A stretch of DNA of 32,000 nucleotides from an uncultured Chloroflexia bacterium. GTDB taxonomy: Bacteria > Chloroflexota > Anaerolineae > Anaerolineales > Anaerolineaceae. Made by a program: the position numbers and the translations under genes. The stretch lies in assembly GCA_963806635.1 (NCBI GenBank), contig CAWDZA010000023.1, positions 226,876 to 258,875 of the forward strand, read 5' to 3'. This document shows, one piece after another, positions 18,275 through 24,285 of the stretch. Numbering within the stretch: position 1 is the first letter of the stretch; each line of letters begins with the position of its first letter. The notes under the pieces were generated by a model, which was not told the origin of the DNA, made no database searches, and worked only from the letters and a program-made list of their open reading frames with translations.

Positions 18275-18574
18275 TCAGCAGCAATCGCCCTGGCCGCCAC
18301 CGCAACCGCAGGTGGCTTCATCCATCTTTTTACCCCGCAGGGCAGCCTGGATCATGGCGGAGGCGCAGCCAACCCCGGCATCCACATAGATGGCTCTCAC
18401 CGGGCAGTTCAGCATGCAGGCGCCGCACTCCATGCAAGCAAGTGGGTTGGCAAGAATGGCTACTTTTTCCCCGCGGGCGAAGACGGCATGCGGGCAGACG
18501 ATGCTGCACAGGTCGCAGTTTATGCAGAGATCAGAATCATATTGCAGGGTGGTTTCGGTGTAGGAATTGAACAT
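18275..18574 (-). CDS. hgcB: HgcB, 2x[4Fe-4S] ferredoxin of the mercury-methylation pair
   Basis: Two CxxCxxCxxxCP motifs (CINCDLCSIVCP and CMECGACMLNCP), an internal GVGCA cysteine, and a C-terminal vicinal pair ...GQGDCC. GGGAGG RBS lies inside the hgcA 3' end, with a 1-nt gap between the genes. Confidence 0.85.
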   Translation of the reverse strand: MFNSYTETTLQYDSDLCINCDLCSIVCPHAVFARGEKVAILANPLACMECGACMLNCPVRAIYVDAGVGCASAMIQAALRGKKMDEATCGCGGGQGDCC

Positions 18575-18575
18575 C

Positions 18576-19568
18576 TCAACCTCCCAGCGCTTTCCAAATC
18601 GCCAGACCTATCGTTACCGCCACGCTGAACCCGAAGAACCAGCCCATGACCGGGATATACGCGAAGATCTCCTTTTTCACACCGGTGCGGGAGGTGAAAG
18701 TGGAGGAGCCGGTGAAGTTGAGCGCGATGAAAGCCGTTACCACCGGGTAACCGAGCACGAGTGGCAGAAGGTGAAGGATTTTCGACCATAATGGACCCGT
18801 GGAGTTCGTCCAGGATTGAACCATAAAGGGCAGCATCACCACCAGACCAAGGAAGAAACCCTTGACGCTGAAATCATGGGAGGGCAGCCAGGGCAGCAGG
18901 ATGGGGAATAGCACAATCGCTGCCAGCACCGAAGTTACCACAGCCGCCACCGCAAACCAGCCGCCGAGGAAATAGAGGATCAGCGCTGCAAGCAGCGTGG
19001 GCAGGAAGTAGTTGATGATATCCACCGGGATGAGCGTGAGCCTATCCTTGATGCTGAACCGCACTTCGCGCATTTCTGCGGTTGCCTGCCGATTGCGCAG
19101 GTACTCCTTAAGGTCTTCCGCGCGGACGGGGCCGTATTCCACCTTGAAGCCGGTGCGCTTCTTCACAATGTGTGCCATCACCCCGGTGGCGCCCAGTTGG
19201 GGCAGGATCAACACCCGGGTGTTCACAATATCCTTCAACCCGGAGGACTCGATCCGCTTGACCAGCTCATTCGTCCCAAAGGTGCCCTTGCCGGCGGCGC
19301 ACCAGACGTTTATGCCGTGCGTGTCCAGGACTAGGATCCACCCATCCACGCCGGCAAGTGACGAGCGCAGCGCGTTGAAGGAGAGCTTGTAATTGGCGGT
19401 GACAAAGACAGGGGAATCCGGAGTGGGCGATCCGAGCGCATACAACCCCGGTTTCACCCGGTGCAGGGAGCGGTTAATGCCCACCCGCGCCTGAAAGGTG
19501 TCCCAGCGGTCCGCCGAAGTCAGCTGGTACGTTGTCGAAAAGAACTCAGCCTGCAACTTAACCTCCAT
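18576..19568 (-). CDS. hgcA: HgcA, corrinoid protein of the mercury-methylation pair (CFeSP-like domain plus C-terminal TM domain)
   Basis: Residues 87-94 are NVWCAAGK, encoded at 19287-19310 (AAC GTC TGG TGC GCC GCC GGC AAG on the minus strand). This is the diagnostic cap-helix motif. The C-terminal half (from about residue 180) consists of several hydrophobic helices. Confidence 0.9.
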   Translation of the reverse strand: MEVKLQAEFFSTTYQLTSADRWDTFQARVGINRSLHRVKPGLYALGSPTPDSPVFVTANYKLSFNALRSSLAGVDGWILVLDTHGINVWCAAGKGTFGTNELVKRIESSGLKDIVNTRVLILPQLGATGVMAHIVKKRTGFKVEYGPVRAEDLKEYLRNRQATAEMREVRFSIKDRLTLIPVDIINYFLPTLLAALILYFLGGWFAVAAVVTSVLAAIVLFPILLPWLPSHDFSVKGFFLGLVVMLPFMVQSWTNSTGPLWSKILHLLPLVLGYPVVTAFIALNFTGSSTFTSRTGVKKEIFAYIPVMGWFFGFSVAVTIGLAIWKALGG

Positions 19569-19595
19569 TTTTTCCGATTAAAAAATCCATGTTCG

Positions 19596-19919
19596 CTACA
19601 TGCAGCATTTTTTCAGGGTCTCCGTTGTTTCGTGACTGGGTGCGAATTTGATCATCAGGTTGCCACAGCAGCGCACGATCTTTTCCTCGTTGAGGCGGTA
19701 GAAAGTCTGCTTGCCCTCTGCCCGAACCTCCACAAGTTCCGCTGCCCGCAGAATCGCCAGGTGGTGGGAAACAGTCGGCTGGCTTACGTTTAAATGGGCT
19801 ACGATCTCGTTTACCGATAGCCACTGGCAGCAGGCGAGCCCCATGATCTTCTGGCGGGTTTCATCTGCCAGGGCTTTGCTGAAAACCACTTCTTCATCAT
19901 GAATCATATCGATACCCAT
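19596..19919 (-). CDS. arsR: ArsR/SmtB-family regulator upstream of hgcAB
   Basis: wHTH VNEIVAHLNVSQPTVSHHLAILRAAELV. Three vicinal Cys pairs: LACCQW, RCCG and C-terminal KCCM. Confidence 0.85.
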   Translation of the reverse strand: MGIDMIHDEEVVFSKALADETRQKIMGLACCQWLSVNEIVAHLNVSQPTVSHHLAILRAAELVEVRAEGKQTFYRLNEEKIVRCCGNLMIKFAPSHETTETLKKCCM

Positions 19920-19928
19920 CTATGTGTT

Positions 19929-19956
19929 ATTATATAGATAATCGTCTATATGTCAA
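19929..19956 (-). promoter_or_regulatory. Consensus promoter with embedded inverted repeat (ArsR-type operator candidate) for arsR-hgcAB
   Basis: Minus strand reads TTGACA (19951-19956), 16-nt spacer, TATAAT (19929-19934), then 9 nt to the ATG at 19919. The inverted repeat TATATAGA-N6-TCTATATg (19931-19952) spans the spacer and the -10. Confidence 0.55.
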
Positions 19957-22972: not shown

Positions 22973-23402
22973 TTCGACCTTCCTTTGATTTGGTGGCGAG
23001 GTTGTCAATACAGATTGAAGCTTCATCCGCAAGGGCTTCTGCAAGTCTTATCCCGTTTTCATTAAGTACAGCGATTCCCTCCGGTCTAAAATCCTTATAC
23101 CTGCGATAGACATCCAGAACATCGAACGCCTGAGCGATTTTCCCGCCGCTTTCTTCAACCATTTTGGAGGCGCAAGCCAGTTTACAACCATCGATGGTTA
23201 TCGCTGGGTTTCCTGAAACTTTGGCAACAGCGGATGCTTCCCCCATGACAAGTTTTGCAAGTGCCACCAGGTCGGTATATTCTGGACGCAGGTCCTCGGT
23301 GATGATATATGCCGCTTCCCGGCTGACAGAACCAAAGGCTTTTCCAATCCCGCTGCAGGGAACGATGACCACTTTTAAGTTAGTTTCTTTTCGGGGTTTC
23401 AA
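22965..23402 (-). CDS. DGC-domain protein (short form)
   Basis: KVVIVPCSGIGKAFG...AITIDGCKLACASKMVEE is the DGC pattern. TTG start overlaps the gcvH-like stop (TTGA). Confidence 0.65.
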   Translation of the reverse strand: MKPRKETNLKVVIVPCSGIGKAFGSVSREAAYIITEDLRPEYTDLVALAKLVMGEASAVAKVSGNPAITIDGCKLACASKMVEESGGKIAQAFDVLDVYRRYKDFRPEGIAVLNENGIRLAEALADEASICIDNLATKSKEGRNA

Positions 23403-23845
23403 CTATTAACCTCGCGCTCCGCGTCGGCTTTCATTCTGGAAAAATAGGATTTTGGGTCCAAAAGACGCGTTTTCTCATTATTCCAATCACTTGCTTTGAT
23501 CACTACCAGCCACCCAGCTCCAAACGGATCCCGGTTGATAACCTCAGGGGCTGTGACGAGTTCCGGGTTTACTTGAACAATCTCACCAGTGATTGGGGAG
23601 GGCAGTTCGATATTTACTTTCATGGTCTCAATTGTTGCGAGCCGCGAACCAGCATTTACCTGTTTACCAACAGGGTTCATCTCGGCAAATGCCACATCAC
23701 CGTTATGTTGTTGAAAGAAATCAGACACACCAACTCGAACCTGGTTCTCTTCGGTTTTCAACCAAAGTCCTTCCGCGCTGTATAAGCGATCTGTAGCGAC
23801 TTTGAAAATAAACTTGTCCACCATTGCTTCAAGAAATTCAGACAT
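23399..23845 (-). CDS. Glycine-cleavage H-protein family lipoyl-carrier homolog (orphan)
   Basis: LYSAEGLWLKTEENQVRVGVSDFFQQHNGDVAFAE...LATIETMKVNIELPSPITGEIVQVN...DPFGAGWLVVIK aligns with GcvH, including the lipoyl-lysine position. ATG at 23845 with GGAG 8 nt upstream. Confidence 0.8.
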   Translation of the reverse strand: MSEFLEAMVDKFIFKVATDRLYSAEGLWLKTEENQVRVGVSDFFQQHNGDVAFAEMNPVGKQVNAGSRLATIETMKVNIELPSPITGEIVQVNPELVTAPEVINRDPFGAGWLVVIKASDWNNEKTRLLDPKSYFSRMKADAEREVNS

Positions 23846-23881
23846 AATTTTCTCCAAATAAAATAATCGGTTTGAAAAACA

Positions 23882-24235
23882 TTAACATCCCTCATTGCGT
23901 TTTTTGCTGCAATTTGGACAGCAGCAATTTGGGGAAGGTGCGAGATTTGGAAGGGATAGACCTTGAATCTCTGCCGTGCGTCGAATCAGATCCAAAATTT
24001 CCAGATTGTTCAACCGGTAGTGCTTGTTCCGACCAAGTCTGCGAACCGCGAGGATGCCTGCTTTACGAAGAGTCATTAAATGCTGGGAAAGGTAAGCCTG
24101 CCTCCAACCGAAAGTGGCTTCAAGATGACAAACGCAGGGATCCTCCCCGCCAATTGCCAGAAGAATCAACAACCTCGGGGTTGGACTGATGACACCTAAC
24201 AAATTTGATACTTGTTCAACTTCTAATACATTCAT
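23882..24235 (-). CDS. arsR: ArsR/SmtB-family regulator with CVC metalloid site and a Cys-rich tail
   Basis: DPCVCHL (compare the canonical ELCVCDL), wHTH QAYLSQHLMTLRKAGIL, tail NCCCPNCSKKRNEGC. The ATG at 24235 is preferred; the ORF-track TTG at 24259 is the alternative. Confidence 0.8.
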   Translation of the reverse strand: MNVLEVEQVSNLLGVISPTPRLLILLAIGGEDPCVCHLEATFGWRQAYLSQHLMTLRKAGILAVRRLGRNKHYRLNNLEILDLIRRTAEIQGLSLPNLAPSPNCCCPNCSKKRNEGC

Positions 24236-24262
24236 ATTATTGAATATATCATAAATCAAGAA

Positions 24263-24285
24263 AACCGCAATATTTATTGCAGGTT
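24263..24285 (-). terminator. Hairpin after the aminopeptidase gene (terminator candidate, may double as an operator)
   Basis: Minus strand reads AACCTGCAATA-aa-TATTGCGGTT followed by TTCTTGATTT. The stem is AT-rich and has one bulge. Confidence 0.35.

Follow-up and report, generated by a model that had tools for sequence, protein, structure and literature searches.

The 32,000-nucleotide (nt) stretch of DNA analyzed here (the window) comes from an uncultured Chloroflexia bacterium and carries, between positions 18275 and 24235, a predicted mercury-methylation gene pair, hgcA and hgcB, next to a group of arsenic-related genes, one of which encodes a protein resembling the H protein of the glycine cleavage system (GcvH-like). 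The 11 genes of this region were examined by translation of their open reading frames (ORFs) and by comparison with the Pfam and NCBIfam families. All 11 are co-linear on the minus strand, and the families recovered agree throughout with the names given to these genes in an earlier note made from the sequence letters. The genes, and the features that delimit them, are the following (bp, base pairs; aa, amino acids).

18275-18574, minus strand: hgcB, mercury-methylation ferredoxin, 99 aa (NF040864, 105.2 bits, cut-off 99)
18576-19568, minus strand: hgcA, corrinoid protein, 330 aa (NF040863, 415.2 bits, cut-off 275; Pfam CdhD)
19596-19919, minus strand: arsR1, ArsR/SmtB regulator (HTH_5, 2.7e-13; NF033788, 80 bits, cut-off 55)
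19929-19956, minus strand: promoter of arsR1-hgcAB, TTGACA-16-TATAAT
19958-24341, minus strand: inserted block
20016-21063, minus strand: acr3, arsenite efflux permease (Pfam SBF), split over two ORFs in the window
21060-21473, minus strand: arsC, arsenate reductase of the low-molecular-weight phosphatase (LMWP) type, thioredoxin-coupled-like, 137 aa (LMWPc, 4.9e-21)
21470-21721, minus strand: Trx, small thioredoxin-like protein of the MTH895/ArsE family (Thioredoxin_3; TIGR00412, 93 bits, cut-off 62)
21777-22229, minus strand: OsmC-like protein, 150 aa (Pfam OsmC, PF02566)
22229-22972, minus strand: DGC2, DGC-domain protein, 247 aa (PF08859)
22965-23402, minus strand: DGC1, DGC-domain protein, 145 aa (PF08859)
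23399-23845, minus strand: GcvH-like lipoyl carrier, 148 aa (GCV_H, 6e-31)
23882-24235, minus strand: arsR2, ArsR/SmtB regulator, 117 aa (HTH_5; NF033788, 53.3 bits, just under the cut-off of 55)
24265-24282, minus strand: terminator-like hairpin with T-run, after the M29 peptidase gene and just upstream of arsR2
24341-25441, minus strand: M29 aminopeptidase gene (Peptidase_M29, 1e-79), a native gene bordering the insertion slot on its upstream side

The translation of hgcA contains the cap-helix motif INVWCAAGK, which fits N(V/I)WCA(A/G)GK, and that of hgcB contains CMECGAC and a C-terminal CC; hgcB begins 1 nt downstream of hgcA. By equivalog scores, motifs and adjacency, the two genes are thus a predicted mercury-methylation pair, and arsR1, separated from hgcA by 27 nt, forms an operon with them. 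Further upstream, from arsR2 to acr3, neighbouring genes overlap or have no more than 55 nt between them, and a 96-nt spacer then precedes arsR1-hgcA-hgcB. This layout suggests two transcription units, arsR2 to acr3 and arsR1-hgcA-hgcB. Three units had been proposed in the earlier note; the arsR1-hgcA-hgcB unit stands, but the upstream genes belong to one conserved eight-gene operon and are not split in two.

The base composition of the region is not uniform, and GC windows, tetranucleotides and the GC content of third codon positions (GC3) all place a low-GC stretch there beyond chance. Positions 19569-24285 have a GC content of 0.484, the lowest of all 4.7-kb windows, against 0.550 for the whole window. 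When tetranucleotides are correlated with those of the remaining sequence, the coefficient dips sharply at 20001-24400, to a minimum of 0.685 (0.81-0.94 elsewhere). The mean GC3 of the module genes is 0.49, compared with 0.66 +/- 0.08 in the 29 other ORFs (Mann-Whitney p = 3e-5), and from arsC through arsR2 the values lie between 0.43 and 0.52. The anomaly ends at the arsR1 promoter, so that the break in composition coincides with the boundary of the block: hgcA, hgcB and arsR1 have GC contents of 0.58, 0.59 and 0.53 and GC3 values of 0.77, 0.70 and 0.67, like the flanking M29 (0.70) and fadR (0.74) genes. Hence, arsR1-hgcAB is native by composition and adjoins the anomalous block rather than lying inside it. 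The earlier note had described a 6-kb AT-rich island in which hgcAB is embedded, and had backed it with two spot counts that proved exact (0.433 GC at 21781-21840 and 0.750 at 16621-16680); the island was confirmed for 19958-24341 and its eight genes, but not for arsR1-hgcAB, whose GC3 of 0.67-0.77 is host-like and contrasts with 0.43-0.58 in the module. One member of the block, acr3, has a GC3 of 0.69-0.70, and we considered whether it is a separate native piece. This was ruled out, because acr3 also stands above its operon partners in the three foreign copies of the operon described below (L064-L066), which makes the high GC3 a property of the gene rather than a sign of separate origin, and because the nucleotide homology to foreign modules spans acr3.

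A scan with HgcA, with one genome per species, returned 63 loci, the closest of which are in two Chloroflexia metagenome-assembled genomes (MAGs), L001 and L002, with HgcA 79-82% identical. Both keep the order ppk2-unk443-M29 ... hgcA-hgcB-fadR-glpD-FAD (flavin adenine dinucleotide) oxidase at 71-91% aa identity (88-91% for the M29 protein), and at this conserved locus both lack the entire arsR2-to-acr3 set of eight genes. In L002, 38 bp separate the M29 stop codon from the conserved arsR1 promoter; arsR1 (77% identical) is in the same position and the whole arsR1-hgcAB unit is syntenic. Homology between the window and L002 stops at 24342 and restarts at 19957, so that the inserted block measures at most 4384 bp. 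L001 retains hgcAB without arsR1, and its slot between M29 and hgcA (L001:8286-9834) holds a frameshifted major facilitator superfamily (MFS) transporter gene; with an MFS gene in one sister and 38 bp in the other, the spacer is variable among sister lineages.

Within the species, an exact look-up of the 148-aa GcvH-like protein located nine conspecific contigs (from ENA, JGI and Logan samples) that are 97-100% nucleotide-identical to the window, plus a tenth occurrence without DNA, while the same look-up with the window HgcA returned no record. As far as each contig reaches, it shows M29-arsR2...acr3-arsR1-hgcAB-fadR, and six of them span through hgcA; the arrangement is thus fixed in a widespread population. 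The block also has co-linear nucleotide homology, at 77-78% identity over window positions 24166-20024, to L064, L065 and L076. No plasmid carrying DGC2 was found. Sister flanks that lack the block, the break in composition, the occurrence of the same operon in unrelated contexts and the fixed conspecific arrangement together identify the block as an insertion, and they support the horizontal acquisition of 19958-24341 from a lower-GC donor. The mosaic origin that the earlier note had suspected for the 20-24.3 kb part is upheld by its deviant composition, its absence from sisters with the same flanks and its relatives of about 48% GC.

The operon found in the block (arsR2, gcvH-like, DGC1, DGC2, OsmC-like, ArsE-like thioredoxin, arsC, acr3) recurs with the same eight genes in the same order, and in unrelated neighbourhoods, in L064, L065 and L066, at 63-88% aa identity. 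The GC contents of these genomes are 48%, 48% and 59%, and L064 and L065 are about 48% throughout, like the block. The GcvH-like family was followed in 83 loci, made up of L064-L066, which were found as GcvH-like homologs, and 80 loci from a metagenome scan with a family alignment; the denominators given here are the loci whose contig was long enough. DGC1 directly follows the gcvH-like gene in 65/65 loci, DGC2 directly follows DGC1 in 48/48 and the OsmC-like gene directly follows DGC2 in 37/37, with an arsR gene upstream of this core in 49 of 59 loci. An ArsE-type thioredoxin gene lies within 4.5 kb of the core in all 18 long loci, acr3 is downstream in 11 of these 18 and arsC in 8, and in variant operons Acr3 is replaced by ArsP (L108, L133) or TauE exporters. 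The gcvH-like-DGC-DGC-OsmC-like set is therefore an invariant core that is usually preceded by arsR. Not one of the 83 loci contains hgcA, and the gcvH-like gene is absent from all of the other 63 hgcA loci.

In six loci (L136:10-1167, L140:5527-6681, L147:471-1625, L144:3-857, L115:1-459 and L126:6269-6487), the gcvH-like gene is preceded, at a distance of 3-13 nt, by a gene with its best match to dihydrolipoyl dehydrogenase (Lpd); these loci form a sub-lineage of the cassette where TauE-family exporters stand in for Acr3. A truncated copy of this protein scores 382 bits with TIGR01350 and contains GGTCLNIGCIPTK and HAHPTLPE. The possibility that the gene encodes MerA was ruled out by these motifs, by the lack of a C-terminal CC and by the lower score with the MerA model (295 bits). 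Members of the cassette are abundant: at E <= 1e-5, 6,364 homologs of DGC2 and 7,247 of the OsmC-like protein were counted, and the named sources include Anaerolineales and Bacteroidota MAGs. Two fused forms were also seen, P0353 (244 aa), which joins the OsmC-like protein to an ArsE-type thioredoxin, and P0236 (379 aa), which joins DGC1 to DGC2. A literature search, itself incomplete, on DGC/PF08859 with arsenic and on GcvH with OsmC and arsenite returned no description of the cassette, and only a preprint on Pseudodesulfovibrio mercurii ND132 (bioRxiv 10.1101/2022.10.17.512643) proved relevant.

The proteins of the core share features of thiol chemistry. In the GcvH-like protein the lipoyl-lysine, K76, is invariant in 28 sequences and its ETxK motif is conserved in 83; the protein has no Cys, carries an N-terminal extension and stays below the GcvH cut-offs (TIGR00527, 96.5 against 115.85; PRK01202, 113.8 against 117). 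DGC1 has three invariant Cys and DGC2 six, including a CxC in its C-terminal domain, and over DGC1, DGC2, the OsmC-like protein and Trx the invariant Cys number 13. A search of the PDB with the DGC sequences returned no match. The model of the OsmC-like protein (predicted local distance difference test, pLDDT, of 68) matched 2onf, 1qwi, 1vla and 6ebd with a Foldseek probability of 1.0. The Cp-helix motif TPEDAFVAAANTC is present, with the peroxidatic Cys on the first long helix after a PE motif; this residue, C57 (150-aa numbering; C58 in the 151-aa form), is invariant in 36 orthologs; a different residue, C78 (150-aa numbering; C79 in the 151-aa form), is the second invariant Cys. The CxxC of Trx is invariant in 34 orthologs. 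With a conserved core, arsR and Lpd as neighbours and hgcA never among them, the GcvH-like protein is best read as a putative redox carrier that works through its lipoyl group in a thiol cassette linked to arsenic.

The remaining genes of the imported operon are the ars genes and acr3. Among 49 orthologs of ArsR2, 48-49 keep the CVCHLE motif unchanged, and the C-terminal CxCPxC is invariant as well. In the translation of arsC we found the CX5R-type P-loop CTGNSCRS and the pair C81/C88, which corresponds to Cys82/Cys89 of thioredoxin-coupled ArsC; its best NCBIfam matches are arsenate reductase (thioredoxin) models, all below their cut-offs (TIGR02691 gives only 101 bits against 174). The intact conspecific Acr3 (348 aa) scores 457 bits with TIGR00832 against a cut-off of 282.8. 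In a further Chloroflexia MAG, L007, in which HgcA is 64% identical, the stretch L007:8896-10280, about 6 kb downstream of hgcAB and on the same strand, carries an arsC and an arsR of the CVC type, 68% and 51% identical respectively, together with a small thioredoxin-like ORF.

The native unit has regulatory features of its own. Its TTGACA-16-TATAAT promoter, in the 96-nt spacer, matches the consensus at 12/12 positions and is conserved in L002. Between its -35 and -10 lies the palindrome ATATAGA-N6-TCTATAT (19932-19951), and a second, degenerate copy at 19906-19925 covers the arsR1 start; these are the two matches observed in the window, where 0.01 are expected. When the window was searched, no palindrome of the ArsR1 type was found upstream of arsR2, and the two regulators share 42% identity over only 36 aa.

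We consider it likely that the locus is composite, with a native arsR1-hgcAB unit and an imported, ArsR2-headed eight-gene operon that contributes an arsenic-linked thiol relay and does not serve C1 (one-carbon) supply to HgcA. In such a scheme the operon would have entered the short spacer between M29 and the arsR1 promoter from a lower-GC donor. ArsR2, whose CVC site is typical of As(III) sensors, would let go of the operon when As(III) is present, ArsC would reduce As(V) by means of the small thioredoxin, and Acr3 would export As(III). The four-gene core may act as a dithiol redox relay: dihydrolipoyl dehydrogenase would reduce the lipoylated GcvH-like protein, from which electrons would pass to the thiol protein of the OsmC-like type, the two Cys-rich DGC proteins acting as partners, and the relay would protect or repair thiol chemistry under arsenic stress, or handle As(III) itself. 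There are precedents for such a transfer. In the part of PMC5384416 that cites Cussiol 2010, Ohr/OsmC enzymes take electrons from lipoylated proteins, and a passage of PMC7946386, citing Nyvltova 2016, describes an OsmC of Trichomonas vaginalis that is reduced by lipoate via the L and H proteins; according to PMC7946386, this hydrogenosomal pathway removes peroxides although the other glycine cleavage components are missing. The native arsR1-hgcA-hgcB operon, for its part, would be driven by its consensus sigma-70 promoter with the two operator-like palindromes. More tentatively, and with rather less than even confidence, we propose that (Lpd)-GcvH-like-DGC1-DGC2-OsmC-like plus the ArsE-family thioredoxin is an uncharacterised and very widespread lipoyl-dependent, ArsR-controlled system against arsenic or thiol-reactive metalloids in anaerobic sediments and soils, which would here place hgcAB downstream of an arsenic-induced operon.

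Several observations weigh against this composite reading. No integrase or transposase family was detected with Pfam among the scanned ORFs, no tRNA and no Rfam match marks the block, and the longest repeat common to its two ends is 7 nt; furthermore, the closest module is only 77-78% identical, so that either the actual donor has yet to be sampled or the transfer happened some time ago. As for the relay, Lpd adjoins the core in only 6 of the 83 loci, and the AlphaFold model of DGC2 (pLDDT 72, moderate) gave just generic flavodoxin-like matches in a Foldseek search of the PDB (E > 0.02). The OsmC-like protein lacks the canonical resolving Cys of the CP motif (KYSLVANS, where 2onf has KYCFIS), and hence its peroxidase activity is not assured. 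The fused forms P0353 and P0236 could hint at a physical partnership or could be artefacts of long-read assembly, since the genes abut or overlap. Finally, read-through from acr3 into arsR1-hgcAB could add arsenic-dependent hgcAB transcription, the one ground for this being that no terminator was predicted in the 96-nt acr3-arsR1 spacer.

The composite reading has to be weighed against other accounts of how the block came to lie beside hgcAB, and why. The block might be ancestral and have been lost from the sister lineages rather than gained here; just two sister genomes are available, and L001 shows remodelling of the slot, where arsR1 is gone and an MFS gene is found. Such an old resident should have ameliorated, yet its GC3 is 0.49 against 0.66 and its tetranucleotides are the most deviant of the window, with a composition matching that of the roughly 48% GC genomes that hold its closest relatives; moreover, the 38-bp spacer of L002 is clean, and two independent losses would be needed in place of one gain. 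We therefore regard an ancestral block as improbable. A separate question is whether the adjacency is functional, that is, whether HgcAB is involved in the response to arsenic, with ars and hgcAB held by selection under co-ordinated, arsenic-dependent expression. Genes for acr3 or arsC lie within 10 kb of hgcAB in 7 of the 63 loci, from several phyla (L021, L029, L032, L038, L039, L051 and L055), compared with a rough chance estimate of about 1% per locus, which assumes 1-2 acr3 copies per genome of about 4 Mb, and ArsR-type genes precede hgcA in at least five loci (L002, L003, L005, L033 and L041). Co-location of hgcAB with arsR, acr3, arsC and arsM has been published (McDaniel et al. 2020, PMC7438021, Fig. 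6), and in P. mercurii ND132 an ArsR responsive to arsenic and S-adenosylhomocysteine (SAH) regulates hgcAB, whose deletion mutant is more sensitive to As(V) (Gionfriddo et al., bioRxiv 10.1101/2022.10.17.512643). In the window, in addition, the two units share a strand with no terminator predicted between them, and their arrangement is fixed in all the conspecific contigs. On the other hand, the closest sister species lack the module, and the unrelated MFS gene in the L001 slot means that the spacer may just be variable and permissive. Moreover, ArsR1 is only distantly paralogous to ArsR2, palindromes of the ArsR1 type are absent upstream of arsR2, and the core never accompanies hgcAB elsewhere. 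A functional adjacency thus seems to us rather unlikely for this locus, and the preferred account is still that a foreign operon settled beside a native arsR1-hgcAB unit.

The function of the core can also be read in other ways. The earlier note had suggested that the co-location could reflect a C1 or a thiol link rather than arsenic alone, and in the former case the GcvH-type protein would feed a methyl group derived from folate or C1 metabolism to HgcA. This protein belongs to the Pfam GCV_H family and keeps the lipoyl-lysine, and its gene shares the strand of hgcA, at a distance of 3.8 kb. However, hgcA is found in 0/83 loci of the GcvH-like family and the gcvH-like gene in 0/63 of the other hgcA loci, and loci of the sister species that are presumed capable of methylation do without it. 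There is no gcvT or gcvP (GCV_T, GDC-P) among the window ORFs or in L064-L066, the protein falls below both NCBIfam cut-offs for GcvH, and its invariant partners are the Cys-rich DGC pair and the OsmC-like protein under ArsR control, sometimes with Lpd. We found no support for a role of the GcvH-like protein in C1 supply to HgcA; gene context largely refutes this idea, which we rate as highly improbable, and the thiol link that the note offered as the other choice is the one favoured by the evidence. An MttB-family gene (PF06253, trimethylamine methyltransferase superfamily) was observed on conspecific contigs (L067:1-1378, also L068-L070), about 0.5-1.8 kb past the window end (32000) and about 13 kb from hgcAB; if a link to HgcA through methyl supply were sought, it would be a more plausible candidate than the gcvH-like gene. 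A closer rival to the relay is that the core binds and handles As(III) instead of working as a peroxidase relay, with its dihydrolipoyl arm, the Cys-rich DGC pair and the OsmC-like protein chelating As(III), or an organo- or thio-arsenical, and passing it to the exporter, much as ArsD hands As(III) to ArsA. As(III) is classically bound by vicinal dithiols, dihydrolipoate among them, and the core and Trx combine 13 invariant Cys with a dithiol cofactor; the canonical resolving Cys is gone from the OsmC-like protein, and the core is always paired with an exporter, whose type varies (Acr3, ArsP, TauE). A DGC protein is encoded, furthermore, in 'operon C' of ND132, arsR5-arsP-arsE(PF13192)-DGC(PF08859), which is As-induced (bioRxiv 10.1101/2022.10.17.512643). 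But the adjacent Lpd gene of six loci speaks for redox cycling and not for a static sink, and the OsmC-like protein keeps TPEDAFVAAANTC, which is typical of active peroxidases. An As(III)-handling system seems to us rather unlikely, and the lipoyl-dependent thiol relay remains the reading that we prefer.

The association of hgcAB with ars genes was already known, and the window is one more instance of it; what is new is that here it arose when a foreign operon was inserted next to an arsR-hgcAB unit that was native. The conserved gcvH-like-DGC-DGC-OsmC-like core also appears not to have been recognised before. As a clean case from nature, the locus illustrates how an ars operon can reach hgcAB, through insertion into a variable spacer in one species, and it shows that the conserved part is the arsR-hgcAB unit and not the ars cluster, which tempers arguments for hgcAB and ars genes travelling as one island. 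For arsenic biology, the analysis brings out a four-gene thiol/lipoyl cassette, controlled by ArsR, that is abundant, rigid in its conservation and apparently unstudied; two of its members are DGC-domain proteins, a family without a solved structure or known function, and this makes the cassette a good target for experiment.

Some features of the window itself need comment. Its acr3 is read as two overlapping frames, 20167-21063 and 20016-20666, due to an extra C at 20487 that is not present in five conspecific contigs, and glpD contains two more single-base insertions private to the window, at 17283 and 16123; the intact conspecific versions encode 348 aa (Acr3) and 526 aa (GlpD). Three private 1-nt insertions within 3.2 kb point to assembly error rather than pseudogenisation, so that these frameshifts are probably errors of assembly. 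Between glpD and the FAD oxidase gene, a small GIY-YIG-like ORF (15511-15812, GC 0.49) is absent from L002; the conspecific contigs that extend this far (L067-L071) stop aligning at about 15737-15812, and an additional ORF of 148 aa is present in L071. A second small patch of lower GC is thus variable here. A 122-aa ORF at 10291-10659 has a GC3 of 0.415 and no Pfam match, with a secondary tetranucleotide dip (0.81) at 10801, and its surroundings (10-12 kb) may be another foreign or non-coding patch. Two genes for ParA/MinD-like ATPases (AAA_31, CbiA), at 1151-1942 and 3352-4194, flank an ORF of unknown function, and a gene for an AAA_22 ATPase is nearby.

When compared with known systems, the locus resembles the published hgcAB-ars neighbourhoods in having ArsR directly upstream of hgcAB and acr3 and arsC within a few ORFs, but here a single species received the ars genes together, in one foreign operon of eight genes, and the core, which goes unmentioned beside hgcAB there, stands beside hgcAB in our sample only in this species. 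The imported operon shares with the canonical arsR-arsC-acr3 operon with thioredoxin-coupled ArsC the CVC of its ArsR, the P-loop and Cys pair of an LMWP-type ArsC, and Acr3; it differs in the five extra genes between arsR and arsC and in an ArsC that scores under the equivalog cut-offs. Operon C of ND132 is likewise ArsR-headed and combines an ArsE-family thioredoxin, a DGC protein and an exporter, but its exporter is ArsP instead of Acr3, it has a single DGC gene, and genes of the GcvH-like and OsmC-like types are missing from it. With the lipoyl-dependent Ohr/OsmC systems, as portrayed in the relevant parts of PMC5384416 and PMC7946386, the core has in common an OsmC-fold protein encoded together with a GcvH-type carrier, with Lpd in six loci and without GcvT or GcvP; unlike what those parts describe, the resolving Cys is missing here and C78 (150-aa numbering) is invariant, two DGC partners are obligatory, and the predicted system is under ArsR control and linked to an arsenic exporter. 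Finally, the GcvH-like protein shares with the H protein of the glycine cleavage system the GCV_H fold family and the lipoyl-lysine motif, but it scores below the equivalog cut-off, carries an N-terminal extension, is not encoded next to gcvT or gcvP in the loci with annotated neighbours (the window and L064-L066), and is accompanied by the same redox and Cys-rich neighbours in every locus with room for them.

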